Positions 9,658 to 32,612 of a stretch of DNA of 64,000 nt are shown here, piece by piece. The DNA comes from Candidatus Rokuibacteriota bacterium (lineage in GTDB: Bacteria; Methylomirabilota; Methylomirabilia; Rokubacteriales; CSP1-6), in NCBI GenBank assembly GCA_003220225.1, contig QHRU01000040.1, positions 19,666 to 83,665 on the forward strand, given 5' to 3'. The translations under genes were made by a program, and so were the position numbers. How positions within the stretch are numbered: the stretch's first letter is position 1; every line of letters starts with the position of its first letter. The notes beneath the pieces were generated by a model. The model was not told where the DNA came from, ran no database searches, and saw only the letters and a list, made by a program, of their open reading frames with translations.

Positions 9658-9987
9658 ATGGCGGTCGTGTTGTCGGAGGCGGCGGCGAAGCAGGTGAAGG
9701 AGCTCAAGCAGGCGCAGAACCTGCCCGAGACGGCGTTCCTGAGGATGGGCGTGCGCGGCGGCGGGTGCTCGGGTATGTCGTACGTGCTGGAGTTCGACAC
9801 CGAGAAGAGCCCGCACGACAAGGAGTTCGACATCGACGGCGTGAAGGTCGTGATCGACAAGAAGAGCTACATCTATCTGAACGGCACGACCCTCGACTAC
9901 GTCACGCAGGGGCTGACGGGCGGCTTCACGTTCGTGAACCCGAGCGCGAAATCGTCCTGCGGGTGTGGAACCTCGTTTTCCGCGTGA
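9658..9987 (+). CDS. iscA: A-type Fe-S carrier IscA
   Basis: 109 aa; GGGCSG and C-terminal CGCGTSF motifs. Confidence 0.85.
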   Translation: MAVVLSEAAAKQVKELKQAQNLPETAFLRMGVRGGGCSGMSYVLEFDTEKSPHDKEFDIDGVKVVIDKKSYIYLNGTTLDYVTQGLTGGFTFVNPSAKSSCGCGTSFSA

Positions 9988-10014
9988 CACGACGGTAGTC
10001 CGCCGGCGGAGTTT

Positions 10015-10080
10015 GAGGGGGGTCTCCCCCCTCGATAAACAAATGGTCGGGCCCGTTAACGCCGGGCCCGTCGTCGTTTT
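10015..10080 (+). terminator. Intercistronic GC hairpins plus T-tract between iscA and hscB (attenuator/partial terminator candidate)
   Basis: GAGGGGGG-TCT-CCCCCCTC (10015-10033) and CGGGCCCG-N7-CGGGCCCG (10048-10070) followed by TCGTCGTTTT. Confidence 0.35.
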
Positions 10081-10089
10081 GGGGGAACG

Positions 10090-15176: not shown

Positions 15177-15559
15177 GGTACAGCCCGACGCTGGTCGATC
15201 ACTTCCTCAACCCGAGAAACGCCGGGCTGATGCGGGACGCCGACGGCTCCGGCAGCGACGAGTACGCCGGCTGCGGCGACCTCACGCGGTTCTATCTGAA
15301 GATGCGCGCGGGGTGCCTCGCCGAGGCGCGCTTTCAGGCCTACGGCTGCGGCCCGACGATCGCCGCGGCCAGCGTGGCCACCGAGCTGGTGGCGGGCCGC
15401 GCGGTGGAGGATCTGCTGGTCCTGAAGGCGCAGGAGATCGAAGACGCGCTCGACGGGCTTCCGGAGGATCGGAAGCACGCGGCCGAGGTGGCGGCGGGCG
15501 CGATGCGGGCGGCGGCGCTGGACGCGCTCCGCCGCCGGCCTGGGAACAGGGAGGCGTGA
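15173..15559 (+). CDS. NifU-like N-terminal (IscU-type) scaffold domain protein
   Basis: 128 aa; [18 protein letters not shown] conserved Cys sites of U-type scaffolds; ATGA overlap with nifS. Confidence 0.75.
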
Positions 15560-18273: not shown

Positions 18274-20439
18274 TCAGGGGCCCGGATTGCACTTCCCGCC
18301 GTCGCCAGGCTGATTGCAGACATCGCTCGCGACCGCTTGCGCGATCAGGGCATCGCGGTCTGCCGCGAGCAGGTACCCTTGATTGAAGGCGTTGTTCGCG
18401 GCCGCCGTCACCGCGGCGACGTACCCGGCGTGGGTGCCGTAGCGCTCTTCCAGCGACAGGCGCGGATCGCCCGCGGCGAGCCGCTGCGCCTTGGTCTTGA
18501 AGAACGGCACCATGCCGCCCACGTAGTTGCAGACCTGTCCGGCGTGGAACGGCCTGCCGTCGTAGGCCGCGCGGCCCGGACCCGATGTGATGTTCCAGCC
18601 GAGATAGGTGCCGAGCGGCGCGTCACGCTGGACGGTCGGCACACCGCCCAATTCGTTGCCGTCCGCATCCACACGCGGCACCATCATCTTGATGACGTGC
18701 AGGATCGGGGGCGGCGCGTTCGTCGGGGTCCCGGTCGCGTCGCTCTCGTTGAACTCGGGACCCCAGTCGTAATCGAAGACCGGGAAGATGAAGTTCTCCG
18801 GCAGGAAGACCGAATCCGGAATGCCGGGCACGCCGCTCGGGAATCCCATGGCGGCCTTGGTCGGCTCGACCAGGGTCTTCTTCGCCAGCGTCGGCCACTG
18901 GCTCGGCGGCGGATCCACGCCGAGCATCACCCAGTCGCGCAAGGCGACCCGCATCCGATTGACCAGCCCGGTCGCGGGCACGGGATTCGCCAGCAACGTA
19001 CCTGTTCCCCAGTTGTTGCCGGGGCACCCGACGACGTTCTTCGGCGGATTTTCGGTGGTCGTCCCATTGCCGCCGCCGTGCGTCGAACTGGGCAGGTAGT
19101 AGCGGCGGACGTTCTTCGGCACTGGAATGTCGTTCTTCGCCGAGGTGCCGACCCAGGAGGTCGTCATCTTCAGCGCAAACACCTCGGCGCCGCCGAACGT
19201 CTCGACGATCTTCGGGCACGTCTTGGTCGCTTCACAGCGGTCGAGGATGCCCGCCGGGTGCAGACCGCGGACCGTGTCGGGGAACTGGTGCCACCACTGG
19301 GGACCTTCGCTGCCCATCTGGTAGAGCTCGAGCACGCCATCCGGCTGGCCCCAGCGGGAATTGTTGGCGACGCGACGACCCGCGATGAGCGGCCACGCGC
19401 CGTCGTGGACGATGCGTCCCTGTTCGTCCTGGTTCATGCCGAGATGGATGAAGTGCCGTGTGAAGTTGCCGGACTGCGACGACCCACGAATGATCGCCCA
19501 CTTGATGCTGCCCGCGAGCGGGTTCGGTGTGCCGAAGTCGTCATTGGGCTCATACCTGAAAAAGGACGCGACGTCGCGGAACGCTGCCGTGCCCGCGCCC
19601 AGGACGTACGGGTCCGTGACGGTGTAGACCAGCTGGTAGAGCTTCGTCGCATCGAAGCCGTCCTTCAGGCACAGCCGCACCGGTAGCGTGGTGACCGGCG
19701 TCGGCGCCGCGAACGTGCCACCGCCGCAGAAGTTCCAGTCGCTGTTCGGGATGGTGGATCCCTCGGTCACGATGCCGGTGATCGTCTCGTGCAGGTGCGT
19801 GGTCAGCGTCGCTCCGGCGTTGTTCGTGGGGTCGACCGGGAAATACGGAATCGGATTGCCCATCACGTTCAGCGGCTGCGCCCCGAGGCCGCTGCGATTG
19901 ATGATGCGGCCGACGATGTGTCCGGTCACGCCCGTGAGCACCGGCACCTTCACCCACTCATTGCTGCTCGGGGTGACCGGGGCAAGCGTCGATGCATTTG
20001 CGGGGACGATCGTCGCGGGCGCGGTCACCGGGTTCGCGCCGGCGTTGTCACCCTGCCAGCCGCTGCTCAAGCCGACGTCGCTCAGGTTACGCAGATCCGG
20101 CGTGATGGTGATCCGGCCGCCGCGGTTCGGCACGTCGTGCCACATCAGCCCGCTCGCCCGCGACATGTCGACGGGCTTGACGATGAAGAAGCTGGCGACG
20201 TACCCGACCTTGCCGTTGACCCGTGGGGCCAGGTCGATGTCCGTGATGAGCGTGTTGAGCGGATCGCTCGGATCCAGCTCGCCGAACGCGCGCCCGGTCA
20301 GCCTCTCGTAGGGAATGTTCTGACCGGTCAGGGGCTCGGTCTTGTCGATGATGATTCTCGTCACGCGGGCGTGCGCCGCCGGCGCCCACGCGAGGACCGC
20401 GACCACGACGAGCATGAACCACGTCGCTCGATGTCTCAT
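18274..20439 (-). CDS. Secreted protein of unknown function, paralog A (721 aa)
   Basis: Sec signal peptide (MRHRATWFMLVVVAVLAWAPAAHA); clearly alignable to upstream paralog (DDFGTPNPL, FPxKTKAxRLAxGDPRxSxEERY, GWxxxxGP blocks); strong GC3 bias. Confidence 0.75.
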   Translation of the reverse strand: MRHRATWFMLVVVAVLAWAPAAHARVTRIIIDKTEPLTGQNIPYERLTGRAFGELDPSDPLNTLITDIDLAPRVNGKVGYVASFFIVKPVDMSRASGLMWHDVPNRGGRITITPDLRNLSDVGLSSGWQGDNAGANPVTAPATIVPANASTLAPVTPSSNEWVKVPVLTGVTGHIVGRIINRSGLGAQPLNVMGNPIPYFPVDPTNNAGATLTTHLHETITGIVTEGSTIPNSDWNFCGGGTFAAPTPVTTLPVRLCLKDGFDATKLYQLVYTVTDPYVLGAGTAAFRDVASFFRYEPNDDFGTPNPLAGSIKWAIIRGSSQSGNFTRHFIHLGMNQDEQGRIVHDGAWPLIAGRRVANNSRWGQPDGVLELYQMGSEGPQWWHQFPDTVRGLHPAGILDRCEATKTCPKIVETFGGAEVFALKMTTSWVGTSAKNDIPVPKNVRRYYLPSSTHGGGNGTTTENPPKNVVGCPGNNWGTGTLLANPVPATGLVNRMRVALRDWVMLGVDPPPSQWPTLAKKTLVEPTKAAMGFPSGVPGIPDSVFLPENFIFPVFDYDWGPEFNESDATGTPTNAPPPILHVIKMMVPRVDADGNELGGVPTVQRDAPLGTYLGWNITSGPGRAAYDGRPFHAGQVCNYVGGMVPFFKTKAQRLAAGDPRLSLEERYGTHAGYVAAVTAAANNAFNQGYLLAADRDALIAQAVASDVCNQPGDGGKCNPGP

Positions 20440-20464: not shown

Positions 20465-22627
20465 CTAGTCGTCGTCTCTCTCGTCGTCCCTGTCGTCCCC
20501 GTGGTGTTCGTTCTTGTCGCCGCAGAGCGGCACCGGGGACACGGCGGGCGGCGGGCCCGGCGGCGCGGGCACGCCCTGGGCCAGTCCCAGCGCGATCAGT
20601 CGCGCGTACTCGCTGGCAGTGTCCTCGCACAGCATCAGGCGATCCTCGACCATCTCCCTGATCGCGTGGGCCACCCGGTGCTGGTACTGCTCGAACGTCG
20701 GATAGCGCTCCTCGACCGACTGGCGCGGATCGCCGGAAGCCAGGCGGTCGGCTTTGGTCTTCGGGAACGGGACGAACTGGCCCGCGCTCTCGCAGCCGTC
20801 GTTGGCCTGGGGGCCGGCCCGCAGCGCCCAGCCAGTATACGTGGCGATCGGCACGGTGACATCGACCAGACGCACGCCTGCGATGTCGTTGCCGTCGCGG
20901 TCGGTCTTCGGGATGAAGCTCGGATAGATCGGTCCGTTGTGCGGATTGTCCTCGTACGGCGGCGTGATCAGGGGCGGGTTGACCGTCGCAATACCGGTGT
21001 CGTAGTAGTGCGGCCCGTAGTCGAGCAGATAGCGCGTCGTCTTGAGACCGGTGTAGGTGACGCCCGGAATGCTGGGGAAGCCCATGCCCGCCTGCGGCAG
21101 CGGCGGCACCAGGGTCTTGTCGTGAAGCCTCGGCACCCGGCTGCGCGGCGGCTTCGTGTGCTCGGTCGCCCACTCGTCCAGTGCGACGAACAGGGCGCGC
21201 TGCACCGGCGCGGAGTTCAGCGGATTCAGGAACTGCTGGCAGTTGCCCTTCGACGCGCTGTTGCCGGTGCCGTGCTGGTGGCTGGAGATCAGGTAGTTGC
21301 GCGTGAACCGCGACTCGTGGAGGTCCCTGGTGCCCTGAGAATTGGTGTGCAGGAGCGAGGCGGCCTTCACCCAGTACTCGTTGGCCGAGTAGATCTCCAC
21401 GCCGTACGGGCAGGTGCCGGTCTCCTTGCAGCGCGCGTACCGGCTATCTGTCTTGCCCGTGATCGGATCGTGTGTCTTCACGTTGGCGAACGGAAAGACC
21501 CCCTCGGCGTAGAGATGATCCTGGCGGTTGCGCTCGGTGCGGCCCGGCTGCGAGAACCGGTAGTTCATGTTGATGCCGTCGCCCGCCGCGATCCACTGCA
21601 TCAGGCCGTCGAACACCTTCTTGCCGTTCTCGGCCTGGTTGAAGCCGAGGTGCCGGAAGTCGTTGAGCAGCCGTCCGGGCTGCGAGACGACTTCCGTGTA
21701 GATCCGCTGGATGTCCCCCTTCAACGGATTGGGCGTGCCGAAGTCGTCGGCCGCCTCGTACCGCAGCCAGGCGTTCCAGTCCCGGATGGCGGCGAATCCC
21801 AGCCCGTTCACGGACGGGTCGTTGGCCGTGTACGAGAACTCGTAGATGTCGTTCGCGACCCAGCCTGCCGGGACCAGGTTGATCGTCGTTCCGCTCGCGT
21901 TGTACGTCCAACCCGTCGCGGGAATCACCGCGGGCACGTCGTTCAGGTGAACGCGATGGGTCAACGTCGCCTTGCTCTTGTCGAGCGTGGCCGCCGGATA
22001 GTTGAGCGGGAACGCGGCCGTTCCCGACATCACGATGTACTCGTACGCCGGCCCGGTGATCGACGAGCCATCGGCGTTCTTGGCGATCGGCAGCGTGATC
22101 GTCGTGTTGAAGCCCGCAGTGCTGGTGCCCGCCGCCTTGTCCCAGCCGCTCCACACCATCGTGTAGCCGCGCGGCATCAGGAAGGCGTTTGCCAGCACGG
22201 TCGGGTCCGTGACCGAGCCGGGGTCGTTGCCGCCGGGCATGCGACCGAAGTTTCCCCACGTTTTGCCGCCGCGGTTCGGCGGCTCGTACATCACCTTGTG
22301 CGCGCCGCGACTGAGGTCGATCGGCTTGAGGATGTAGAAGTCGAACGAGTACTCGACCTTGCCGCCGGCGTTCCGCGGCGCGAGCTGGATGTCCACGATC
22401 ACGGCGTTCTTCGTGTCGAAGGGATCGACCTCGCCGAACGCCTTGCCGACGACCTTCTCGTACTGTCCGACGCCCGGCCACGAATAGCCGCCAAACGTCG
22501 GCGATTCGGTGGCCGTGACCTGGATCCTGACGATGCGGGCGTCGGCGGTGCCGGGCGAGCCGCACACGGCAAGCAGGGCGAGGATCGCGAGCAGACAGGA
22601 AGCCGTCCAGCGCGTTCGTGCGTTCAT
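20465..22627 (-). CDS. Secreted protein of unknown function, paralog B (720 aa), acidic C-terminal tail
   Basis: Signal peptide; same conserved blocks as paralog A; 25-bp intergenic spacer suggests co-transcription; divergent from LysR gene. Confidence 0.75.
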   Translation of the reverse strand: MNARTRWTASCLLAILALLAVCGSPGTADARIVRIQVTATESPTFGGYSWPGVGQYEKVVGKAFGEVDPFDTKNAVIVDIQLAPRNAGGKVEYSFDFYILKPIDLSRGAHKVMYEPPNRGGKTWGNFGRMPGGNDPGSVTDPTVLANAFLMPRGYTMVWSGWDKAAGTSTAGFNTTITLPIAKNADGSSITGPAYEYIVMSGTAAFPLNYPAATLDKSKATLTHRVHLNDVPAVIPATGWTYNASGTTINLVPAGWVANDIYEFSYTANDPSVNGLGFAAIRDWNAWLRYEAADDFGTPNPLKGDIQRIYTEVVSQPGRLLNDFRHLGFNQAENGKKVFDGLMQWIAAGDGINMNYRFSQPGRTERNRQDHLYAEGVFPFANVKTHDPITGKTDSRYARCKETGTCPYGVEIYSANEYWVKAASLLHTNSQGTRDLHESRFTRNYLISSHQHGTGNSASKGNCQQFLNPLNSAPVQRALFVALDEWATEHTKPPRSRVPRLHDKTLVPPLPQAGMGFPSIPGVTYTGLKTTRYLLDYGPHYYDTGIATVNPPLITPPYEDNPHNGPIYPSFIPKTDRDGNDIAGVRLVDVTVPIATYTGWALRAGPQANDGCESAGQFVPFPKTKADRLASGDPRQSVEERYPTFEQYQHRVAHAIREMVEDRLMLCEDTASEYARLIALGLAQGVPAPPGPPPAVSPVPLCGDKNEHHGDDRDDERDDD

Positions 22628-22702
22628 TCACGTTCTCCTCAGCGCGAGGGGCTCCGCTCAGCGCGCGCCGGGAGAGTGCACCGGCCGCCGGCGTTCAGGC
22701 AA

Positions 22703-22731
22703 TTGAATATTTGTTATTGCAGTCATATAGT
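22703..22731 (+). promoter_or_regulatory. Sigma70-like promoter for LysR gene (TTGAAT-N17-TATAGT), probably leaderless, overlapping GCAAT-N12-ATTGC dyad
   Basis: Only AT-rich patch in 110-bp divergent intergenic region; -10 ends 6 nt before ATG 22738; dyad 22699-22720 resembles a LysR T-N11-A type box. Confidence 0.45.
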
Positions 22732-22737
22732 CCCGCT

Positions 22738-23643
22738 ATGAATTTCACCCTCCGTGAGCTCGAGGCGTTTCTGGGCGTCGCCCGTCTCGGAAACTTCACC
22801 CGTGCCGCCAAGGCGCTGAACATGTCGCAGCCCGCGCTCACCGTCCGCATCCGCCATCTCGAGGAGGCGCTCGGCGTGCGGCTGCTCGATCGCACCACGC
22901 GCTCCGTGGCGCTGACGCAGATCGGGCGCGAGTTCCTGCCGGTCGTCGCGCGCGTGCTGGGCGAGATCGACGCGGTGGCCGTCAATGCCCGCGACGTCGC
23001 GGGACGGCGACGCGGCGTCGTCACCGTCGCCGCCCTGCCGTCCGCGGCGTCGACGCTGCTGCCCGCGATCATCGCGGCCTTCAAAGCCCGCCACCGCGGC
23101 ATCGTCGTGCGGCTGCGTGACGGTGTCGCGCAGCGCGTGACGGCGCTCGTGAAGTCGGGCGAAGCCGACTTCGGGATCGGCAGCCCGACGAAGCGCGACC
23201 CCGAGCTGCGGTGCTCGCCGCTCCTGTCCGACCCGATGAGTGCGGTCTTTCCGCCGGGGCACCCGTTCGAGCAGCGTGCCGCGGTGCGCCTGGAAGATCT
23301 GCTGACGGTGCCGCTCATCCTCATGGACAGCGAATACAGCGTTCGCACGCTGGTCGACCAGGCGTTCGAGTCGATCGGCAAAGGGGTCGCGCCCGCCTAC
23401 GAGGCGAGCTACGTGTCCACGGCGCTCGGGCTCGTCAAGGCCGGCCTGGGCGTCGCGGTGCTCGCGTACTCGGCCGCCGACGAGGCCGCCACGCAGGCGG
23501 CCGCGCTCCGGGCGCGCGTCATCGAGCATCCGATGCTCGTCCGCGAGATCAGTCTCATCGAGAGCACGAGGCGCTCGCTGTCGCCGGCCGCGCAGCAGTT
23601 CCTCGAGGCGGTGCGCCAGGGGGCGCCGCGGCGGATCGCGTGA
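22738..23643 (+). CDS. LysR-family transcriptional regulator
   Basis: N-terminal HTH (LRELEAFLGVARLGNFTRAAKALNMSQPALTVRIRHLEEALGVRLLDR) plus C-terminal substrate-binding domain. Confidence 0.85.
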   Translation: MNFTLRELEAFLGVARLGNFTRAAKALNMSQPALTVRIRHLEEALGVRLLDRTTRSVALTQIGREFLPVVARVLGEIDAVAVNARDVAGRRRGVVTVAALPSAASTLLPAIIAAFKARHRGIVVRLRDGVAQRVTALVKSGEADFGIGSPTKRDPELRCSPLLSDPMSAVFPPGHPFEQRAAVRLEDLLTVPLILMDSEYSVRTLVDQAFESIGKGVAPAYEASYVSTALGLVKAGLGVAVLAYSAADEAATQAAALRARVIEHPMLVREISLIESTRRSLSPAAQQFLEAVRQGAPRRIA

Positions 23644-23716
23644 GCGCGATTTGCGGGCCGTCGGCGCATCGGCTACACTCGCTGAACAGCGGTTCATTCG
23701 CCCCGGAGGCCAACGC

Positions 23717-24472
23717 ATGGATCGACCGATCGCCTACGACAAGCTCGCGCGCGAGGACCGCTTCGTGCGCATGCGTGCGCGCGAGGTCGGCGAGCTGAAG
23801 GTCGAGCAGGGTCTGCCGCCGTTCCCCGACCTCGCGAGCCGAGAGTCCATTCGCGAGCGCGTGCACGGCATCATGGTCGGCGAGCTCCAGGCGATGGAGG
23901 GCGCCGGCCGCACCGTCTACGACTTCCCGGAGGCGCCGTGGGAGTTCACGCTGGACATGGCGCGGCAGGTGTGGGACGAGTCGCGCCACGTCGAGACCTA
24001 CCTCGGCCTGCTCGAGCACCTCGGCGGCCGGGTGGGCGAGTTCCCGGAGTCCACCATCCTCTGGCGCTGCGCGTGCGCGGAAGACGCCGCCGCCCGCGTG
24101 GCCGGCGTCAACCGCGGTCTCGAGGGCCTGGCGTGCGACGTCTTCAACCAGCTCATTCACATCGCGCAGAAGATCGGCGATCCGATCATCGAGAAGTCGG
24201 TGGACTACGTGCTGGCCGACGAGATCACGCACGTGCGCATGGGCTCGCGCTGGCTCAACGAGCTGACGCGCGGCGACGCCGAGCGCCGGCGCAAGGCCAT
24301 CGAGTTTCAGGAGACGATCGACGAGCGCTTCAACCTGGGCGGCAGCCGCCAGGACGGCCACCACGAGGTGGTGCCGATCTCGATCGCCAAGGAGGCGCGC
24401 AAGCTCGCGGGCTTCACCGACGAGGAGATCGAGCGGCTCATCAAGAGCACGCAGCGCTCGCAGGTGTATTGA
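23717..24472 (+). CDS. Ferritin-like diiron-carboxylate protein (DUF455-like)
   Basis: Two E...ExxH motifs (WDESRHVE; ADEITHV) with ~100 aa spacing; overall pattern resembles DUF455 family. Confidence 0.65.
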   Translation: MDRPIAYDKLAREDRFVRMRAREVGELKVEQGLPPFPDLASRESIRERVHGIMVGELQAMEGAGRTVYDFPEAPWEFTLDMARQVWDESRHVETYLGLLEHLGGRVGEFPESTILWRCACAEDAAARVAGVNRGLEGLACDVFNQLIHIAQKIGDPIIEKSVDYVLADEITHVRMGSRWLNELTRGDAERRRKAIEFQETIDERFNLGGSRQDGHHEVVPISIAKEARKLAGFTDEEIERLIKSTQRSQVY

Positions 24473-25452
24473 GCTCCCACCACCTCGCGGGCCACTTCTC
24501 CGTCGACGACTCCGCGCGGCGGATCCGCAACTACCGGTACGCCGAGGAGCGCATGATGCGCGTGCTCGGCGGCTGGATCGCGCTGACGCCCGAGCTGCCC
24601 GCCAAGCTGCTGTTCGGCCGCCACGTGTGGGACTGCGCCCAGCACGCGGATCTCTGGGGACGGCGGCTGCCCGAGCTGCGCGCGGCGGCGCACGAATCGG
24701 AGCCGGCGAACGACGCGATGGTCGCCTTCACGGAGATGCTCGAGAGTCCGGAGGGTCCGCGGCAGACGCTCGAGCGCATCGTCGGCGTCTACGCCGTGCT
24801 CAAGCCGCACCTCGTGACGGTCTACGCGCGTCACCTCGCGTCGACGAACGCCGTGTACGAGCCGCCGACCCGGCGCATCCTGACCCGCTGCCTGGAGGAG
24901 GAGCGGCGCCACGCCGCCGCCGGCGCGATCGTGCTCGACCGGCTCGCGCGCGACGCCGCCGGCCGCGCGCGCGTCGCCGACTGCGCGCGGCGCCTGCTCG
25001 CGGCGCTCGAGAAGGCCGGCGGCGTCACGGGCGACGCGCCGGCGCCGCTCGTGGACCCCGCGCTGCTCGACGTGGCCCCCGAGATCGTCGCTCCCGATCT
25101 CGTCCAGGTTCCGCCGGACTTCGATCCCGCCGCGCTGTCCGCCGATCTCGCGTCCGCCGTGAACGACCATCGCGAGTCGCTGGAGTCGGGTGACGCCGCG
25201 GGCGCCGCGGAGTGGGTCGAGCCCGGGGCGCGCGACGCGCTGAGCGCAGCCTTCGCCCCCCTCGCGGGCGGGATCACCAGCACGCGCGTCGTCGGTCTCG
25301 CCGCGATCGGCCGCCAGCAGATGGTCAAGCTGCGGATCGAAAGCCCGCGCGCGATCGGCTTCGTCCAGCTCCGCTGGACGCAGACGACGTCGGGCTGGCG
25401 CATCGCCGCCGGCGACCTGGTCTCCACCGAGCCCGTCTCCGCCGCTCCCTGA
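24469..25452 (+). CDS. Ferritin-like (putative diiron) domain protein with C-terminal NTF2/SnoaL-like domain
   Basis: TTG start overlapping upstream stop (TTGA); ExxH-like motifs (DCAQH; EEERRHAA) and C-terminal ...WTQTTSGWRI beta-rich domain. Confidence 0.55.
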   Translation: MSSHHLAGHFSVDDSARRIRNYRYAEERMMRVLGGWIALTPELPAKLLFGRHVWDCAQHADLWGRRLPELRAAAHESEPANDAMVAFTEMLESPEGPRQTLERIVGVYAVLKPHLVTVYARHLASTNAVYEPPTRRILTRCLEEERRHAAAGAIVLDRLARDAAGRARVADCARRLLAALEKAGGVTGDAPAPLVDPALLDVAPEIVAPDLVQVPPDFDPAALSADLASAVNDHRESLESGDAAGAAEWVEPGARDALSAAFAPLAGGITSTRVVGLAAIGRQQMVKLRIESPRAIGFVQLRWTQTTSGWRIAAGDLVSTEPVSAAP

Positions 25453-25454
25453 GC

Positions 25455-26801
25455 GTGTTCCGCACCGTCCTCGTCGCCAACCGCGGGGAGATCGCGCGTC
25501 GCATTGTCCGCGGCTGCCGCGCGCTGGGACTGCGCACCGTCGCCGTCTACTCCGAGGCCGATCGCGACGCGCCCCACGTGAAGGACGCGGATCACGCGGT
25601 GCTGCTCGGCCCGGCGCCGGCGCGCGAGTCGTACCTGAGCGTCGAGCGAATCCTCGCCGCGGCCCGCGAGTCGGGCGCCGAGGCGGTACATCCTGGTTAC
25701 GGCTTTCTCTCCGAGAGCTGGCGCTTCGCCGAGGCGTGCGCTCGGGCCGGGCTCACGTTCATCGGGCCCTCGGCGGAGGCGATCCGCGCGATGGGCGACA
25801 AGCCCGAGGCGCGCCGCCGCATGGCCGCCGCCGGCGTGCCGATCGTGCCCGGCAGCCCGGAGCCCGTCGCGGACGCCGCGAGCGCCGAGCGCGTCGCCGG
25901 CGGGCTCGGCTATCCGGTCATCCTCAAGGCGGCCGCCGGCGGCGGTGGCATCGGGATGGCGAAGGTGGCGTCGGCGGACGAGCTGGCGGGCGCGTTCGCC
26001 ACGGCGACCCGGCGCGCGCAGAGCGCGTTCGGCAGCGGCCAGGTCTACGTCGAGCGCTATCTCGAGGCGCCGCGCCACGTCGAGGTGCAGGTCTTCGGCG
26101 ACACGAAAGGCACCGTCGTGCACCTGCACGACCGCGAGTGCTCGATCCAGCGCCGCCACCAGAAGCTCGTCGAGGAATCGCCGGCGCCGAACCTCGACGC
26201 GCGCATCAGGCGCGGGCTGACCGAGGCCGCCGTCGCGGGCGCGCGCGCCATCGGCTACGTGAACGCCGGCACCCTCGAATTCCTCGTGGACGCCCAGGGC
26301 GGCTTCTATTTCCTGGAGATGAACACGCGGCTGCAGGTGGAGCACCCGGTCACCGAGGAGATCACCGGCCTCGACCTCGTCGCCGCGCAGCTGCGCGTGG
26401 CCGCCGGCGAGCCGCTGCCCTTCACGCAGGAGACGATCGAGCCGCGCGGCGCCGCCGTCGAGGTGCGCGTCTACGCGGAGGACCCGGCCAGGAATTTCCT
26501 GCCCTCGCCGGGCACGATCACGCGGCTGGCGCTGCCCGGGGGCGAGGGGATCCGGCTCGAGTCGGGTGTGGTCGAGGGCAGCGTCGTCTCCGTCCACTAC
26601 GACGCGCTGCTCTTCAAGCTCATCGCGCGCGGCGCCGACCGCGCCCAGGCGATCGAGCGTCTGGCGCGGGCGCTGGACACGTGCGTGGTGGAGGGCGTGA
26701 AGACCACGCTGCCGCTGCTCCGCACGATCACCGCGCATGCGGACTTTCGCCGCGGCCGCGTGCACACTCAGATGGTCGAACAAGGAGCGTTCCATGGCTG
26801 A
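25455..26801 (+). CDS. Biotin carboxylase subunit of a biotin-dependent carboxylase (AccC-like)
   Basis: GTG start; VLVANRGEIA, ATP-grasp motifs, EMNTRLQVEHPVTE; 448 aa. Confidence 0.85.
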   Translation: MFRTVLVANRGEIARRIVRGCRALGLRTVAVYSEADRDAPHVKDADHAVLLGPAPARESYLSVERILAAARESGAEAVHPGYGFLSESWRFAEACARAGLTFIGPSAEAIRAMGDKPEARRRMAAAGVPIVPGSPEPVADAASAERVAGGLGYPVILKAAAGGGGIGMAKVASADELAGAFATATRRAQSAFGSGQVYVERYLEAPRHVEVQVFGDTKGTVVHLHDRECSIQRRHQKLVEESPAPNLDARIRRGLTEAAVAGARAIGYVNAGTLEFLVDAQGGFYFLEMNTRLQVEHPVTEEITGLDLVAAQLRVAAGEPLPFTQETIEPRGAAVEVRVYAEDPARNFLPSPGTITRLALPGGEGIRLESGVVEGSVVSVHYDALLFKLIARGADRAQAIERLARALDTCVVEGVKTTLPLLRTITAHADFRRGRVHTQMVEQGAFHG

Positions 26802-27009
26802 GGAGATCAAGGCGCACATCACCGGGGTCGTGTTCCAGGTGACCGCCAAGGTCGGCGACAAGGTCGCCGCCGGCGATCCCGTGATCGTGCTCGAGTCGAT
26901 GAAGATGGAGATCCCGGTGGAGGCGCCGCGCGCCGGCGCGGTCAAGGAGATCCGGGTGCGCGAGGGACAGACCGTGCAGGAGGGCGAGACGGTGGTGGTG
27001 CTGGAGTAG
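26794..27009 (+). CDS. Minimal biotin carboxyl carrier protein (biotinyl domain only, 71 aa)
   Basis: LESMKME biotinylation motif; overlaps biotin carboxylase stop. Confidence 0.75.
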   Translation: MAEEIKAHITGVVFQVTAKVGDKVAAGDPVIVLESMKMEIPVEAPRAGAVKEIRVREGQTVQEGETVVVLE

Positions 27010-27011
27010 CC

Positions 27012-27557
27012 ATGAGCCTGGATGAGCGATCAGAGGAGGAGGGCACGATGAGCGTGGGGATGATCCGCGATCTCTACGACTATCACCGCTGGGCGAACCG
27101 CCGGCTCTTCGACTTCGCCGCCGCGCTGGGCGAGCAGGCGTGCGCGCGGGACGTCGGCGCGCAGTTCAGCCACTCCAAGGTGACGCGGATGTTCGCGCAC
27201 CTGTACGGCGCCGACTGGGTGTGGCTGAGCCGCTGGAAGGGCACGTCGCCGACGAACCTGCCGGGGGCCGACCTGCCGACGATGGCCATCGTGCGCGCCA
27301 AGTGGGACGCGCTCGAGGCCGAGCAGCAAGCCTTCGTGGCCGCGCTGACGGAGGCCGACCTCTCGCGCGCGGTGGCGTACAAGAACACGGAGGGCAAGGC
27401 CTTCAGCGCGCCGCTCGGGCCGCTCCTGCAGCACGTCGCGAATCACGCGACCCACCATCGCAGCGAGATCGCTACCATGGTGACGATGCTCAGCGGCTCG
27501 CCGCCCGACACCGGCATCAACACCTGGATCCTGGCCCGGACGGGACAGATGCGCTAG
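27012..27557 (+). CDS. DinB/YfiT-like (DinB_2) four-helix-bundle protein
   Basis: YDYHRWANRRLFD N-terminal signature and conserved His pattern (HVANHATHHRSEIATM). Confidence 0.6.
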   Translation: MSLDERSEEEGTMSVGMIRDLYDYHRWANRRLFDFAAALGEQACARDVGAQFSHSKVTRMFAHLYGADWVWLSRWKGTSPTNLPGADLPTMAIVRAKWDALEAEQQAFVAALTEADLSRAVAYKNTEGKAFSAPLGPLLQHVANHATHHRSEIATMVTMLSGSPPDTGINTWILARTGQMR

Positions 27558-27559
27558 GG

Positions 27560-29113
27560 ATGGGGATGAAGGAGCACGCCGACGACCTGGCCGCCCGGCG
27601 CGAGCGCGCCGAGCAGATGGGCGGCAAGGCGGCCGTCGACAAGCAGCACGCCGCCGGCAAGCTGACGGTGCGCGAGCGGATCGACCGGCTCTTCGATGCC
27701 GGCACCTTCACCGAGATCGGGGTGCACGCGACCCACGCCGGGATCGCCCCCGAGCTGGAGGGCAAGGTGACGCCGGCGGACGGCGTCGTCACCGGCTTCG
27801 GCAAGATCGACGGGCGGCTGGCCTCCGTCATCGCGTACGACTTCACGGTCATGGCCGGCTCGATGGGCCGCAACGCCGAGGCGAAGTGCAACCGCGCGCG
27901 CGAGATCGCCTACACCAAGCGGATCCCGATGATCTGGCTGATCGACTCCGCGGGCGCGCGGATCCAGGAGGCGATCGGCTCGCGCTGGTTCGCCGGCTCG
28001 GGCCTGCTCTTCCGCGAGGAGTCGATCATGTCGGGCGTGGTGCCGCAGGTGGCGGCGATGATGGGCCCCGGCGCCGCCGGCACCGCCTACATCCCGGCCC
28101 TCGCCGACTTCGTGCCGATGGTGAAGGGGACGAGCAACATGGCGCTCGGCGGGCCGCCGCTGGTCAAGGCGGTGGTCGGCGAGGACATCACCGCCGAGGA
28201 GCTGGGCGGCTCCAAGGTCCACTGCGAGATCTCCGGCGTGGGCGACCTCGAGGTCGAGGACGACGAGCATTGCCTGCGCGTGGTGAAGGAGTACCTGTCG
28301 TACTTCCCATCACACAACCAGGAGCCGCCGCCGGTGATCGCGTGCGAGGACGCCGCCGAGCGCCGCGACGAGGCGCTGCTGACGATCCTGCCCGACAGCC
28401 CGCGCCGCGCCTACGACGTCAAGAAGGTGCTGCGCGCGGTGGTGGACCACGGCCGGCTCTTCGAGATCAAGCCGGGCTGGGCCAAGAACATCGTGGTGGC
28501 GCTCGCGAGGCTGAACGGCCGTGCCGTCGGCGTCGTCGCCAACCAGCCGATGGTGCTCGGGGGCGCGCTCGACATCGACGCCGCCGACAAGGCCGCGCGC
28601 TTCATCATGCTGTGCGACGCGTTCGGCATTCCGCTCGTGTTCTTCCAGGACGTGCCCGGCTTCATGGTCGGCAGCAAAGTCGAGCGCGCCGGCATCATCC
28701 GGCACGGCGCCAAGATGCTCTATGCGGTGAGCGAGGCCACGGTGCCCAAGCTGACGGTGGTGATGCGCAAGGCGTACGGCGCCGGCTACTTCGTGATGTG
28801 CGGCCGCGCCTACGAGCCTGATCTCATCGTGGGCTGGCCGACGGCCGAGATCAGCGTCATGGGGCCGGAGGGCGGGACCAACATCGTCTTCCGCAAGGAG
28901 ATCGCCGCCGCCGCCGAGCCGGACGCCGAGCGCGCGAAGAAGGTCGAGCAGTTCCGCCAGCTCATCAGCCCCTACATCGCCGCCGGCGCCGCCCTCATCG
29001 ACGACGTCATCGATCCGCGCGACACCCGACCGACGCTGATCCGGGCGCTCGAGATGGCCCGCACCAAACGGGTCGACCGCCCATGGCGCAAGCACGGCGT
29101 CATGCCGGTGTGA
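27560..29113 (+). CDS. Acyl-CoA carboxylase carboxyltransferase subunit (PccB/AccD5-like)
   Basis: 517 aa; full-length similarity to propionyl/methylmalonyl-CoA carboxyltransferase family (two crotonase-like halves). Confidence 0.85.
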   Translation: MGMKEHADDLAARRERAEQMGGKAAVDKQHAAGKLTVRERIDRLFDAGTFTEIGVHATHAGIAPELEGKVTPADGVVTGFGKIDGRLASVIAYDFTVMAGSMGRNAEAKCNRAREIAYTKRIPMIWLIDSAGARIQEAIGSRWFAGSGLLFREESIMSGVVPQVAAMMGPGAAGTAYIPALADFVPMVKGTSNMALGGPPLVKAVVGEDITAEELGGSKVHCEISGVGDLEVEDDEHCLRVVKEYLSYFPSHNQEPPPVIACEDAAERRDEALLTILPDSPRRAYDVKKVLRAVVDHGRLFEIKPGWAKNIVVALARLNGRAVGVVANQPMVLGGALDIDAADKAARFIMLCDAFGIPLVFFQDVPGFMVGSKVERAGIIRHGAKMLYAVSEATVPKLTVVMRKAYGAGYFVMCGRAYEPDLIVGWPTAEISVMGPEGGTNIVFRKEIAAAAEPDAERAKKVEQFRQLISPYIAAGAALIDDVIDPRDTRPTLIRALEMARTKRVDRPWRKHGVMPV

Positions 29114-29256
29114 GGCGGGAGCGATGGGCGGGCGCACGCTGATCATGGCCGTCGAGGCGCGGGCGCGGCTGAAGGCGACGTATCGCATCGAGGCCGGCCA
29201 CGAATAGCAAGCTGCTTCCGCCCGCGCTCTACGTCGCCAGCGCGCTCGCGATCGGC

Positions 29257-29634
29257 GTGTTCGTCGGCTCGCTGAACCTGCCCCACTACTCCCGCCTCGA
29301 GGCCCACGGCGCCAGCGCCCGGGCACAGGTGACGTCCACCGATTGCGGTAATCATGGAGCGGTGGCCTACGAGTTCCGGGTCGACGATCGCACCTACGCC
29401 GGGCGCGGCAACGCCGGCTACGGCATTCCGGCGTGCGGTCACCTGAAGCCGGGAGACACGGTGCTCGTCCGGTACCTCGTCGCCGATCCGAGGGAGAGCC
29501 TGCCCGGCGACATCAACGACCGGCTGCGCAACGAGTGGCTCAGCGTCGTGCTGGCGGCGTTCGGGTTGCCGCTGATCATCCTGTTCTTCGCGCGGCGCCA
29601 GGTCAGGCGCTGGGGCGGCGCCCCGTCGTCATGA
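29257..29634 (+). CDS. Small membrane protein (DUF3592-like topology); start may lie upstream at CTG 29212
   Basis: C-terminal TM helix; predicted N-terminal TM (LLPPALYVASALAIGVFVGSL) is in-frame upstream of first GTG with no canonical start. Confidence 0.45.
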   Translation: MFVGSLNLPHYSRLEAHGASARAQVTSTDCGNHGAVAYEFRVDDRTYAGRGNAGYGIPACGHLKPGDTVLVRYLVADPRESLPGDINDRLRNEWLSVVLAAFGLPLIILFFARRQVRRWGGAPSS

Positions 29635-30086
29635 GGCCGGCGCCGCTCTTGCGGATCTCGTGGCGTCTCGCCGGCTGGCTGTTCGCGCACCGGCTCGAGA
29701 AGTCGCATCCGGCGCACGTCGTCGCCTGGTGGGAGCTGCGGCGGCTGCCGTACAACATGATCGTGGGCGCGACCGGTGTCTTGAGCCTCGGGGTGTTCTT
29801 CGCGGTCGCCTTCGGGTGCGAGCGCAGCCGCGGCGTGCCGCTCGGGCTGCCGAGCCCGCCGCTGCTCGTGGTCATCGCGGTCGCCGCGTACTTGATCGTG
29901 GCGAACATCTTCTACACGGGCGGATGGATCCTCGAGCTGCTCGTGGCGAAGGTGTGGCGCGTCAGCACCCCCGTGTTCGGGCCGATCGCGTTCACGCTGG
30001 GCACGGCGTTGTCGGTGGTCGTGACCCTCGTCCCCGCCGGTCTGGTGATCCTCCTGGCCGTGTTCACGTCGTGCCGGGGGCTGTGA
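29631..30086 (+). CDS. Integral membrane protein (about 4 TM helices), unknown function
   Basis: ATGA overlap with upstream gene; hydrophobic helices throughout. Confidence 0.5.
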   Translation: MRPAPLLRISWRLAGWLFAHRLEKSHPAHVVAWWELRRLPYNMIVGATGVLSLGVFFAVAFGCERSRGVPLGLPSPPLLVVIAVAAYLIVANIFYTGGWILELLVAKVWRVSTPVFGPIAFTLGTALSVVVTLVPAGLVILLAVFTSCRGL

Positions 30087-30120
30087 GGCGCGCCGGCCGC
30101 ATCGTGGCCGTCCTGACCCG

Positions 30121-31359
30121 GTGAGCCTCTCGCCGGTCGCCGCGCTGGCGGGGCGGCTGGTGGTGGCCGAGGTCCTCCAGGAGCCGAGCTACCGTCGGCT
30201 CTGGGTCTCCGGCCTCTGCGTCAATGTCGCGCGCTGGATGGACCTCGTCACGGTCGGATGGCTGGCGCTCCAGCTCACCGGCTCGCCCTTCATGGTCGGT
30301 CTCGCGGCATTCGCGCGCGCGGCCCCGCTGATGGCCGTCGGGCCCTTCGCCGGCATCGTGGCCGATCGCATGGTGCGCGGGCGGGTGCTGCTGGCCGCGC
30401 AGTCGGTCGGTCTCGTGACGGCGCTCGCGCTCGCCGCGATCTTCGCCAGCCGCGCGGGCGGCTACTGGCCCCTGGTCGCGCTGGAGATCGTGTTTGGCGC
30501 GATGTGGGCGCTGGACTTCCCGGCGCGCCGCACCGCGCTCTACACGATCCTCGGCGCCTCGCGCGTCGCCCAGGCCGTCTCGCTCGAGACCGTCTCGATG
30601 CAGATCGCCAAGATGCTCGGCCCGCTGGCCGCCGGCGTCTGCCTCGCGCGGCTGGGCCCGGCCGCGTCGTATCTGGTCATGGCGCTCGTGTACACGGCGG
30701 GGCTGCTCGCATCCCGCGGTCTCGTCGGGCGGCTCGGCGGTCCGGGCGGCGGTGCGCCGACGTCCGTGGTGGCGAGCCTGCGTACGGGTCTGCAGGCGGC
30801 GTGGACGAGCCCGACCGTGCGCGGCGTGTTGCTCGTCACCGTCGCGATGAACACGCTGTTCTTTCCCTACCAGCACATGCTGCCCGTCTTCGCGCGCGAC
30901 GTCCTGGCCGTCGGCCCGACCGCGCTCGGCGCGCTCGTCGCGGCCGACGGCTGCGGCGCGCTGCTCGGCGCGCTGATGATCGCCTCGCGAGGCGGTCAGT
31001 TCGCCCAGCGCACGCTGTTCGCCGCCTCCGTGCTCGTGGCGCCGGTCCTCCTCGTGGCGCTGTCCGGCTCGCGCTCGTTCCTCGCGTGCGTCGCGCTGCT
31101 GGTCGTCATGGGCGCGGCGGAGTCGGGGTTCGCCGCGATGCAGAGCACGCTCGTGCTGCTCTCGGCGCCCGAGCGGGTGCGGGGCGGGGCGATGGGGATC
31201 CTGTCGGCGTGCATCGGGACGCAGCCGCTCGGCACGCTGGCCATCGGCCTGCTGGCGGCCAGCGTGGGCGCGCCCCTGGCCTTCGCCGTGAACGCGCTCG
31301 CCGCCCTGCTCGTGATCATCCCGCTCGCGGTGCCGCTCGCGCGGGGCCGCCCCGGCTGA
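30121..31359 (+). CDS. MFS transporter (EntS/YbdA-like)
   Basis: 412 aa, about 12 TM segments, MFS motif region GxxADRxxRxR. Confidence 0.75.
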   Translation: MSLSPVAALAGRLVVAEVLQEPSYRRLWVSGLCVNVARWMDLVTVGWLALQLTGSPFMVGLAAFARAAPLMAVGPFAGIVADRMVRGRVLLAAQSVGLVTALALAAIFASRAGGYWPLVALEIVFGAMWALDFPARRTALYTILGASRVAQAVSLETVSMQIAKMLGPLAAGVCLARLGPAASYLVMALVYTAGLLASRGLVGRLGGPGGGAPTSVVASLRTGLQAAWTSPTVRGVLLVTVAMNTLFFPYQHMLPVFARDVLAVGPTALGALVAADGCGALLGALMIASRGGQFAQRTLFAASVLVAPVLLVALSGSRSFLACVALLVVMGAAESGFAAMQSTLVLLSAPERVRGGAMGILSACIGTQPLGTLAIGLLAASVGAPLAFAVNALAALLVIIPLAVPLARGRPG

Positions 31360-31367
31360 GCGCGGGC

Positions 31368-32612
31368 TCAGCAGTAGCGGCAGGGCGGGACGTCGCGGCT
31401 GTAGACGGGCTGCCGGAGAAAGGCATCCGGGCTGTACTTCCAGAACTGCGAGACGGCGGGGATCGTCACGATCACGGTGTTCTGGAGCTCGCCCTCTCGG
31501 TTGCGCTCCACTTTCCTGAAGTAGACGTTCTGGATCGGATTGCCGTACGTGTCGAGCCTGACGGGCCCCCGCGGCGCGTCGGCGATCTCGACCTTCCGCA
31601 GCGCCGCCAGCAGCTTCTCGCGGTCTTCCACGTTGCCGCCGAGCGCCTTGACCGCCTCGTTGATCCAGCGTCCGCTCGTGTAGTTCGTCTCCGAAAAGTA
31701 GGAGGGGACCTTGCCGAAGCGCGCGCGGTACTCCTTGACGAAGCGCCGGTTGGCGGGCGTCTCGAGCGCGCCGCTGTAGATGAGCGGAGTGACGACGCCC
31801 AGGGCCTCGTCGCCCATCGACGGCAGGAGGGCCTCGTCGACGGCCGGGCCGCCGCCGATCAGCGGGATCCTGGCCTTCAGCCCCGCCTCCTCGTACTGCT
31901 TGAGGAACTGCAGCGTCGAGGCGCCGGCGATCATCGTCAGGACCGCGTCGGCGTCCCGGCGGATCTTCGCGATGTACGGCGAGAGATCCATGACGCCGAG
32001 CGGGGCCCAGAGCTTCTGGATCACCTGGCCGCCGTTCTCCTCGAACGTGCGCTGGAATCCACCGACGACTTCCCAGCCGAACGCGTAGTCGGAGGCGACG
32101 ACGGCGACCTTGCGATAGCCGAGCGTCCTGGCGGCGTACTCACCGAAGGGGTGGGAGGGCTGGCTCGACGCCCACCCGGTCCGGATGACCCAGCGGTACT
32201 TGAGCCGCTGCGTGAGGTCGTCCGAGGCCGCGACGGTGAAGAGCGCCGGGATGCGGTACTCCTCCACCTTCGGGGCCATCGCGTAGCCGATGTGGCCGAA
32301 GAGCACGCCGGCCACGATGTGGACGCGGTCGTGCTCGACGATCTTGCGCAGCTTGGTCAGCGCGACGTCGGGCCGGCCCTGGCTGTCTTCCACGATCAGC
32401 TCGACCTTCCGCCCCGCCATCTGCGAGCCGATCTCGTCCAGGTACAGCGTCAGGCCGTTGACCATGTCCTTGGCCGCCTGCGCCGCCGGCCCGGTGAGGT
32501 CGGTGACGAAGCCGATCCTGATCGGCCCCGGCTGAGCCGGGGCCACGCCGATACCCGCGAGGAGGAGGACCAGCAGGGCGCCCAGCACGATCGAGAACCT
32601 GTTCGCACTCAT
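31368..32612 (-). CDS. ABC transporter substrate-binding protein (branched-chain amino acid/LivK family)
   Basis: Signal peptide MSANRFSIVLGALLVLLLAGIGVAPAQP; type-I periplasmic binding fold; SD ggaggag upstream of ATG 32612. Confidence 0.8.
   Translation of the reverse strand: MSANRFSIVLGALLVLLLAGIGVAPAQPGPIRIGFVTDLTGPAAQAAKDMVNGLTLYLDEIGSQMAGRKVELIVEDSQGRPDVALTKLRKIVEHDRVHIVAGVLFGHIGYAMAPKVEEYRIPALFTVAASDDLTQRLKYRWVIRTGWASSQPSHPFGEYAARTLGYRKVAVVASDYAFGWEVVGGFQRTFEENGGQVIQKLWAPLGVMDLSPYIAKIRRDADAVLTMIAGASTLQFLKQYEEAGLKARIPLIGGGPAVDEALLPSMGDEALGVVTPLIYSGALETPANRRFVKEYRARFGKVPSYFSETNYTSGRWINEAVKALGGNVEDREKLLAALRKVEIADAPRGPVRLDTYGNPIQNVYFRKVERNREGELQNTVIVTIPAVSQFWKYSPDAFLRQPVYSRDVPPCRYC

Follow-up and report, generated by a model that had tools for sequence, protein, structure and literature searches.

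Based on the analysis of a 64-kb stretch of DNA from a Candidatus Rokuibacteriota bacterium (a soil bacterium of the Rokubacteriales, Methylomirabilota; contig QHRU01000040.1; the whole stretch is called the window), we propose a model for a gene cluster in which two ferritin-like diiron genes, g1 and g2, precede the genes for a biotin carboxylase (BC), a biotin carboxyl carrier protein (BCCP), a DinB-fold protein and a carboxyltransferase (CT). Our interpretation, which we favour tentatively, is that the cluster is one repressor-controlled operon uniting a two-subunit diiron oxygenase of the DUF455 family and a short-chain acyl-CoA carboxylase in a single acyl-thioester route, with the DinB-fold protein contributing an accessory step. 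In this model g1 and g2 most likely assemble into a two-subunit ferritin-like diiron oxygenase, g1 being the catalytic and g2 the structural subunit. The oxygenase would act on an acyl thioester, bound either to CoA or to a carrier protein, while a short acyl-CoA belonging to the same route would be the substrate of BC, BCCP and CT, and a metal- or thiol-dependent step might fall to the DinB-fold protein. The model starts from observations of gene content, synteny, metal-ligand conservation, a fusion of the g2 N-terminal domain (g2N) to DUF455 and an operator; from these we infer complex formation, oxygenase activity, a thioester substrate and metabolic coupling of the oxygenase to the carboxylase. 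The arrangement of the genes supports it: g1 through CT are joined by overlapping or 2-nt junctions, and in related loci without BC it is BCCP (in three of them also CT), rather than BC, that stays with g1-g2.

The g1-g2 pair and the DUF455 module

The g1 gene is preceded by a ribosome-binding site (GGAGG, 23705-23709) and its product carries the motifs WDESRH and ADEITH (coordinates of all features are given in Table 1). The putative ligands E61, E88, H91, E136, E169 and H172 are invariant among 15 diverse relatives (28-86% identity) and follow the layout E/EXXH/E/EXXH, a complete six-ligand diiron-carboxylate pattern. The best solved-structure match of the DUF455 family profile is bacterioferritin (E 5e-7), with the EXXH, E and EXXH ferroxidase motifs in register, and a weak match links the profile to aldehyde-deformylating oxygenase. 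Judged by its sequence, g1 is presumed to be the catalytic subunit. A library of 1.8 billion cluster representatives contains 81 relatives of g1 at E <=1e-30. Sequence and profile searches found no solved structure belonging to DUF455, the sequences of g1, g2 and the DinB-fold protein gave nothing significant against the PDB, and no functional data for DUF455 (COG2833, PF04305) were found in the searchable literature.

The g2 protein matches nothing in Pfam or NCBIfam. Its AlphaFold model, with a predicted local distance difference test score (pLDDT) of 78.5, comprises a helical N-half and a probable NTF2-like C-half. Foldseek aligned the C-half with AtzH, SgcJ and other NTF2 structures (E 3e-3 to 5e-2, TM ~0.5 on the target), and the model gave weak matches to aldehyde-deformylating oxygenase and to the beta subunit of toluene-4-monooxygenase (3rmk_B). 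Model, fold matches and profile comparisons agree with a preliminary description of this DNA, which had read g2 as a ferritin-like domain fused to an NTF2-like one. Conservation is high in the N-half and poor in the NTF2 half. Moreover, hhalign shows homology between g2N and an N-terminal extension carried by the long DUF455 proteins, of 410-480 aa (probability 95.9%, E 5e-9), so g1 and g2 represent the split form of a two-domain protein; the presence of a g2N-like domain and DUF455 in one chain is a Rosetta-stone fusion, which argues for a g1-g2 complex. A weak alignment of g2 with g1, of low confidence (E 9e-4, probability 22%), keeps three of the six ligand positions (H59, E145 and H148) and places R31, C56 and K112 where g1 has Glu. 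By analogy with PaaC or the beta subunits of multicomponent monooxygenases, g2 may be a non-catalytic paralogue.

The g1-g2 pair is an older two-gene module. A metagenome scan with relatives 45-60% identical to g1 uncovered about 40 loci that pair a g1-like gene with a short g2-like gene downstream of it. The g2-like gene shows no sign of the NTF2 half in these loci, and BC, BCCP or DinB genes lie near the pair in none of them; in one (L137) a weak CT-like match of 38% identity sits on the opposite strand beside the g1-like gene. Several have a TetR gene upstream, which has no specific NCBIfam regulator match and is not accompanied by the palindrome described below; the other neighbours are not conserved. 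The closest non-Rokubacterial pair, on a Myxococcales-labelled contig (L075), combines a full-length g2 with a g1 of 74% identity; downstream lie two PaaA/PaaC-like genes, a radical S-adenosylmethionine (SAM) gene, a nonribosomal peptide synthetase (NRPS) module and an AurF-like gene. A tblastn search of g1 against a plasmid collection was uninformative, returning two mislabelled Neisseria chromosomes and a single copy on a Geobacillus plasmid, flanked by transposases.

The fused g2N-DUF455 form was found in biosynthetic clusters in six of six contexts read (including L166-L170), namely clusters for polyketide synthases (PKS), NRPS or ribosomally synthesized and post-translationally modified peptides (RiPP). 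In Streptomyces sp. 846.5 it accompanies a set resembling prolyl-peptidyl-carrier-protein dehydrogenase systems (peptidyl carrier protein, adenylation, acyl-CoA-dehydrogenase-like and FMN-reductase genes); other contexts are hybrid PKS/NRPS clusters, PKS clusters with a fatty-acyl-AMP ligase, and RiPP clusters with LanB, YcaO and B12-radical-SAM genes. These long single chains (for example P0395 of Streptomyces sp. 846.5) resemble our pair in the ligands of their DUF455 domain, which is C-terminal, and in an N-domain homologous to g2N. They differ in that the domains are fused in the order g2N-DUF455, the NTF2 domain is missing, identity to g1 is 27-36%, and the setting is PKS, NRPS or RiPP with no carboxylase. 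The company kept by these fused relatives speaks for an oxygenase that acts on tethered or thioester substrates. Since the module sits in other contexts elsewhere, the link to a carboxylase is specific to Rokubacteria.

Carboxylase genes in a conserved operon

Coding frames in the window (GC 66-74%) were chosen by third-position GC (GC3), and the called frames are supported by GC3 values of 0.85-0.94 in a genome of 70% GC. Ten plus-strand genes follow one another at 22738-31359, from a LysR gene to an MFS_3 gene, nine of them at 23717-31359. The gene content that the preliminary description had given for these nine is confirmed. The same description had them packed with gaps or overlaps of 0-4 bp, which is largely accurate from g1 to CT and for g7/g8: g1 and g2 overlap by 4 nt at a TTGA junction, BC begins with GTG after a 2-nt gap, 2 nt separate BCCP from DinB and DinB from CT, and g7 and g8 overlap at ATGA; BC and BCCP overlap by 8 nt. 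The packing is not that tight throughout, because 143 nt lie between CT and g7 and 34 nt between g8 and the MFS gene. A terminator scan of the stretch found no terminator-like site inside it, and an Rfam scan of 22000-32000 yielded no credible RNA element. Directly after CT, within the CT-g7 gap, there is a 27-codon open reading frame (29124-29207, plus strand). Actinobacterial carboxylases have a small epsilon subunit encoded directly after the carboxyltransferase; this reading frame is not conserved in related loci and was rejected as such a subunit.

How much of this row is a unit? A one-genome-per-species scan gave 80 loci encoding g2 relatives, nearly all labelled Rokubacteria or Methylomirabilota, and presence was counted by tblastn of the window proteins against these loci, considering only loci that extend far enough. 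In 75 of 75 related loci g2 immediately follows g1. The tightest linkage to this pair is that of BCCP, which lies downstream of it on the same strand within 9 kb in 61 of 65 loci; BC is present in 57 of 68 and DinB in 49 of 63, some loci having a tandem DinB pair, and CT lies inside the operon in 23 of 54 (~43%). About ten loci pass directly from g2 to BCCP and have no BC in the cluster. By contrast, the unit of eight or nine genes envisaged in the preliminary description does not hold up: the LysR gene lies beside the cluster in one of 68 loci, g7 has no orthologue in any of 53, and g8 is present in three of 53. These counts define the conserved unit as g1-g2-BC-BCCP-DinB, with or without CT, the rest being lineage-specific; the gene order sought in other genomes is thus strongly syntenic in its core across ~80 species, and the linkage of the cluster is far beyond chance. 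The g1 protein is under unusually strong constraint, with identities of 74 to 98% (median 86%, 79 loci); the median is 53% for g2, 73% for BC and 64% for DinB. The nearest homologues of g1 and g2 come from metagenome-assembled genomes (MAGs) of Candidatus Rokubacteria/Methylomirabilota, and clusters identical to that of the window occur on JGI soil-metagenome contigs.

The BC matches PF00289, PF02786 and PF02785 from end to end, as expected of a three-domain biotin carboxylase, and its closest solved chains are the biotin carboxylases 8hz4 (492 bits) and 9eb7 and the alpha subunit of a propionyl-CoA carboxylase (PCC), 6ybp. The biotinyl-lysine motif of BCCP, ESMKME, is invariant in 62 orthologues, which also show hardly any variation along the surrounding LESMKMEIPVEaPRAG; among single-domain structures, the B. 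subtilis biotin/lipoyl attachment protein (BLAP) 1z6h comes closest. The closest solved chains of CT are the PCC beta subunit of T. maritima (1vrg), the 12S transcarboxylase subunit 1on3 and the acetyl-CoA carboxylase (ACC) beta subunit 7w5u, at 492-521 bits. The DinB-fold protein scores 54 bits with PF05163 (cut-off 23) and 39 with PF12867 (cut-off 24.8); 51 orthologues retain several of its His residues, among them those of an H-x3-H-x2-HH stretch near the C terminus, in keeping with the predicted His metal-binding triad of the DinB/YfiT-like fold.

Other carboxylase types were considered and rejected. A methylcrotonyl-CoA (MCC) or geranyl-CoA carboxylase (GCC) of the Liu/Atu kind does not fit, CT scoring 302 bits with the MCC beta subunit 3u9r and 246 bits with the GCC beta subunit 5ikl, versus 521 bits with 1vrg. 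Canonical AccABCD is disfavoured in that CT is one 517-aa PccB-type chain and the carrier has 71 aa versus ~150 aa for AccB; the accA, accD and BCCP equivalog models score far below their cut-offs. A Na+-pumping biotin decarboxylase (Mmd/Gcd/Oad) was discarded in view of the presence of BC, the absence of any family match for the 151-aa g8, and a score of 605 bits with the mmdA model against a cut-off of 998.8. As for substrate preference, the CT motif RKAYGAGYFVM has Phe at a position occupied by Ile in 1vrg and 7w5u, by Leu in 1on3 and by Asp in the PCC 6ybp. We take this Phe to occupy the position of Asp422 in S. coelicolor PccB, where the motif reads RKAYGGAYDVM. Diacovich et al. are said to have found in 2004 that Asp at this position marks a preference for propionyl-CoA. 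With Phe at this position, CT would not be a strict propionyl-CoA carboxylase.

In at least eight deep-branching species (L052, L056, L060, L065, L067-L069 and L076) BC and BCCP are separated by 3-5 kb of inserted genes that run in the same direction. The inserts annotated in L052, L056 and L068 encode a CoA ligase, short-chain dehydrogenases/reductases (SDRs), an enoyl-CoA hydratase and an acyl-CoA dehydrogenase, whose best NCBIfam matches, all below cut-offs, are AliA (cyclohexanecarboxylate-CoA ligase), AliB (cyclohexanecarboxyl-CoA dehydrogenase) and BadH, with one SDR being FabG-like. The insertion of acyl-CoA genes between the carboxylase genes argues that the operon handles an acyl-CoA.

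The chromosomal setting is core-genome, housekeeping territory. In many species the recurrent upstream neighbours are IscS/IscU-like genes, a hexapeptide transferase, an HD protein and DNA polymerase IV (Pol IV; present in 54 loci), and in most species the operon lies directly downstream of the Pol IV gene. Recurrent downstream neighbours are rpoD, on the opposite strand, and malic enzyme, the malic enzyme side continuing in the window with argC, argJ, rpsB, ispG and proS. In one lineage the operon directly follows the fatty-acid synthesis operon yceD-rpmF-plsX-fabHDG-acpP-fabF. This setting suggests the main alternative, in which BC, BCCP and CT are simply the general split-subunit acetyl-/propionyl-CoA carboxylase of the cell, the DUF455 pair and DinB being co-transcribed passengers or regulators that share no substrate with it. 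The kinship of BC and CT with solved ACC and PCC enzymes, the hydrophobic residue in the RKAYGAGYFVM motif and the high sequence conservation of all subunits are consistent with such a role. We nevertheless regard it as doubtful: the 71-aa carrier is of the BLAP/YngHB, archaeal or Mmd gamma type, many species lack BC or CT in the cluster but retain the carrier beside g1-g2, catabolic acyl-CoA genes have entered the operon in one sublineage, and a dedicated operator suggests conditional expression.

Several observations weigh against a shared route for oxygenase and carboxylase. The conserved operon contains no reductase or ferredoxin gene, and an FMN reductase gene adjoins a fused DUF455 relative in one context. 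The predicted model of g1, built from a shallow alignment, has a pLDDT of 52, too poor for inspection of a substrate pocket, and was left out of the fold search. Over half of the species have no CT in the operon, and the housekeeping neighbourhood, like the position after the fatty-acid operon in one lineage, fits a general carboxylase equally. Finally, g1-g2 pairs occur with no carboxylase at all in other phyla; the two halves can thus work independently and their linkage here could be regulatory. A dedicated pathway of oxidation plus carboxylation, as the preliminary description suggested, remains our best reading of the operon, even though a general cellular carboxylase, the housekeeping case that the same description had named as a refutation, is equally compatible with the setting.

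Promoter, operator and neighbouring genes

Alignment of the 120 nt before g1 from related loci (75 distinct upstream regions) revealed a conserved 16-bp palindrome, consensus CTGAAC-N4-GTTCAG, which in the window has the sequence CTGAACAGCGGTTCAT and lies over the predicted transcription start. With at most two mismatches, it occurs in 51 of the 75 regions, beginning 30-38 nt before the start codon. All 51 loci carrying it have a -10-like TA(C/G/A)ACT 2-5 nt before the palindrome, and their consensus shows a -35-like element, gTTGcc, ~17 nt further upstream of the -10. The core GAAC-N4-GTTC is found once in the window, at 23684-23695, and 48 times in 1.21 Mb of Rokubacterial loci, 40 of these within 60 nt before g1. 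From sequence, the two elements are predicted to function as promoter and operator. Given this conserved arrangement directly before it, g1 opens a transcription unit of its own, apparently under the control of a repressor. The LysR gene, directly downstream of which the preliminary description had placed the cluster, is a separate upstream gene.

About a third of the species (L037, L040, L045, L063, L070 and ~20 others) have a second promoter type, with TATAAT ~7-10 nt before the g1 ATG and no palindrome, which suggests leaderless transcripts and loss of the operator in these loci. In the window, a weak second palindrome match (7294-7309) coincides with the beginning of a minus-strand gene that lies upstream of an Rrf2-type regulator and was judged to be due to chance.

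The DinB family is named after a damage-inducible gene of B. subtilis. A member of this family (PF05163) in an operon that directly follows the Pol IV gene in most species, together with the bacterioferritin match of DUF455, would be compatible with a stress- or DNA-damage-inducible unit under a LexA-type repressor, whose products, a diiron peroxidase- or ferroxidase-like protein and the DinB-family protein, would be protective. Indeed, in core and spacing the operator is exactly the LexA box of Firmicutes and Actinobacteria, GAAC-N4-GTTC (PMC4951493). We hold this explanation to be very improbable. Of the eight occurrences of the palindrome core away from g1, only one (L043) lies upstream near a Pol IV gene, and the biotin carboxylase and carrier have no known SOS role.

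The half-sites of the operator, TGAAC and GTTCA, also equal those of predicted BioQ boxes, TGAAC-N3-GTTCA (PMC3398298), from which the operator differs by a spacer of 4 nt instead of 3. This resemblance raises the possibility of a biotin-centred operon, in which g1-g2 would be a functional, O2-dependent analogue of BioE or BioI that cuts long acyl-ACP or acyl-CoA to a pimeloyl thioester and is co-regulated with BCCP and BC, as the main biotin acceptor, through a BioQ-like operator. BioE is a ferritin-like, six-ligand diiron oxygenase that makes pimeloyl-CoA or pimeloyl-ACP from acyl-CoA or acyl-ACP (PMC12704756, PMC12915131). In favour of such a role, no gene is linked to g1-g2 more tightly than BCCP, weak similarity connects both the DUF455 profile and the g2 model with aldehyde-deformylating oxygenase, reported to be structurally closest to BioE, and fused relatives adjoin PKS genes with fatty-acyl-AMP ligases. 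It is unlikely all the same. Apart from the spacer, rough regular-expression tests of 2.0 Mb of related loci found no BioB or BirA motif and one BioD P-loop, the outgroup g1-g2 pairs are not near bio genes, and the spacing between the second and third ligand motifs is 48 residues in g1 versus 72 in BioE. The DUF455 profile finds nothing in the ~60% of CpBioE that could be rebuilt from published primers, and these fragments have no Pfam match either. As a candidate BioE-family member g1 was accordingly rejected, the profile comparison covering partial sequence and the absence of bio genes nearby resting on the rough motif test. A broader variant, in which the DUF455/g2 heterodimer is a biotin-linked diiron oxygenase of a new family, serving an O2-dependent pimeloyl route co-regulated via the BioQ-like box or using the 71-aa carrier as a swinging-arm partner, seems to us similarly unlikely.

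Table 1. Coordinates of the genes and regulatory features around the operon
Feature	Position	Strand	Basis
LysR-family regulator	22738..23643	+	HTH_1, LysR_substrate; below every NCBIfam equivalog cut-off
Predicted sigma-70-like promoter	23651..23679	+	TTGCGG, 17 nt, TACACT read from sequence
Putative palindromic operator	23682..23697	.	Over predicted transcription start
g1, DUF455 ferritin-like diiron-carboxylate protein, 251 aa	23717..24472	+	PF04305, 101.8 bits vs cut-off 34.3, E 6e-29
g2, degenerate ferritin-like (~12-185) and probable NTF2-like (~225-322) domains, 327 aa, TTG start	24469..25452	+	Model, fold and profile matches
BC, biotin carboxylase, 448 aa	25455..26801	+	Biotin_carb_N, CPSase_L_D2, Biotin_carb_C; NF006367 610 bits vs cut-off 597
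BCCP, single-domain biotin carboxyl carrier protein, 71 aa	26794..27009	+	Biotin_lipoyl; NF004547 81.6 bits vs cut-off 75
DinB-fold protein, 181 aa (169 aa from alternative start 27048)	27012..27557	+	PF05163 E 2.5e-14; PF12867 E 1.2e-9
CT (g6), PccB-type carboxyltransferase, 517 aa	27560..29113	+	PF01039, 569 bits
g7, small protein with one C-terminal hydrophobic segment	29257..29634	+	Weak DUF3592, PF12158 E 1.9e-4, below cut-off
g8, small hydrophobic protein, 151 aa	29631..30086	+	No family match
MFS_3 (EntS-like) transporter, 412 aa	30121..31359	+	PF05977 E 1.6e-31; TIGR00900 far below cut-off

Downstream of CT the operon gives way to lineage-specific genes. The g7 frame (29173-29634, plus strand) has its first canonical start codon at 29257, and ahead of this codon it encodes a hydrophobic stretch, LLPPALYVASALAIGVFVG; g7 would either use a non-standard start or be a decaying gene. 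The g8 gene is confined to the closest relatives, with tblastn matches in six genome loci. The transporter gene follows DinB or CT in four of 48 loci, at 75-83% identity. An exported metabolite, as proposed in the preliminary description, has nothing but this transporter to stand on, and most relatives lack it. The fuller version of that proposal, in which a carboxylated acyl-CoA serves as extender unit for a small specialised metabolite that the diiron oxygenase tailors and the MFS protein exports, could draw on the tailoring-type relatives of the DUF455 module in PKS, NRPS and RiPP clusters and on the EntS-like MFS_3 gene, which comes after the operon in the window as it does in a few distant relatives. 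We consider it quite improbable: besides the rarity of the transporter, the conserved core has no synthase, ligase or carrier other than BCCP, and the operon lies in the core genome with conserved synteny.

Other features of the window and of the related loci are recorded here in their own right. Compared with most Rokubacteria, the window has an insertion between the Pol IV gene and g1, made up of two tandem 720-aa Abhydrolase_10 paralogues (18274-20439 and 20465-22627, both on the minus strand) and the LysR gene. Two cysteine-desulfurase/scaffold sets are apparent in the window (7428-7856, 7987-12535 and 14019-15559, all plus strand). The first looks like an isc-type operon behind an Rrf2-type regulator, as judged from open reading frame sizes, order and one translation, and the second an Aminotran_5/NifU_N pair followed by a hexapeptide transferase. 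The IspG/GcpE protein (54506-56029, plus strand; 507 aa) has a weak, intein-like Hint_2 match at residues 300-369, scoring 27.8 bits against a cut-off of 28.4. Lastly, six contigs of ~70% GC with a typical Rokubacterial operon (L051, L052, L060, L066, L069 and L077) are filed under MAGs labelled Dormiibacterota, Nitrosotalea, Acidoferrum, Limnocylindria, Deferrimicrobiaceae and Verrucomicrobiia, and are probably mis-binned in public assemblies.

Known systems and implications for DUF455

Which known systems does the operon resemble? Like split-subunit ACC and PCC enzymes with a PccB-type beta subunit (1vrg, 7w5u with 8hz4, 1on3), it encodes BC, BCCP and a single Carboxyl_trans subunit of ~515 aa as separate genes. 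It departs from them in its bare carrier, in the DinB-fold gene between carrier and CT, in the two ferritin-like genes at its head, in the Phe at the Ile/Leu/Asp position, and in CT or BC often lying outside the operon. A second point of comparison is the yngJIHGFE operon of B. subtilis, which encodes the CT YngE, the hydratase YngF, the lyase YngG, the BC YngH, the 73-aa carrier YngHB/BLAP, the CoA ligase YngI and the dehydrogenase YngJ. It likewise has a separate BC, a single-domain carrier and a CT, mixed with CoA ligase, acyl-CoA dehydrogenase and hydratase genes as in the Rokubacterial loci L052 and L068. Here, however, CT is PCC-like and not MCC-like, there is no 3-hydroxy-3-methylglutaryl-CoA lyase, and the diiron pair and DinB have no yng counterpart.

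The diiron pair recalls PaaA/PaaC and the alpha and beta subunits of multicomponent monooxygenases, in which a catalytic diiron subunit is joined by a paralogue with lost ligands (here by weak alignment); the substrate of PaaA is, moreover, a CoA thioester. It differs from PaaABCDE in that no PaaB, PaaD, PaaE, reductase, ferredoxin or effector genes lie in the operon or in 80 related loci, and neither g1 nor g2 matches PF05138 (PaaA_PaaC) at E <=0.01, a single relative (P0244) showing a faint match. The nearest functional precedent is BioE, which is also a ferritin-like six-ligand diiron protein, is linked to biotin metabolism and has no dedicated reductase gene. Unlike the proposed g1-g2 heterodimer, BioE is a homodimer or monomer encoded beside bioFDBA under BioL, and its ligand spacing differs from that of g1. 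Each part of the operon is thus of a known kind, while the combination and the operator have not been described before. The claim that this is not a standard ACC or PCC layout therefore stands, a diiron pair beside a carboxylase with a DinB-fold gene between its subunit genes being undescribed. Searches of the literature found no functional data on a Rokubacterial carboxylase or on a pairing of ferritin-like proteins with biotin carboxylase.

What are the implications for the DUF455 family? DUF455 appears to work with a degenerate partner domain, encoded by an adjacent gene or fused, and the module has been reused in natural-product clusters. In one order of abundant uncultured soil bacteria, a strongly conserved copy of g1 (74-98% identity) stands in an operon with BC and a minimal carrier, behind a sharply defined operator. 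With the proteins, the carrier and the operator defined, the operon offers a concrete entry point to DUF455 function. If the two enzymes do not share a substrate, the arrangement still shows how Rokubacteria organise an acyl-CoA carboxylase. Should the oxygenase prove to be biotin-linked, this would be the first function for DUF455, a family also found in eukaryotes and in many biosynthetic clusters. If, as we tentatively propose, oxygenase and carboxylase do share a substrate, the operon would represent a new pairing of O2-dependent and biotin-dependent chemistry on acyl thioesters.

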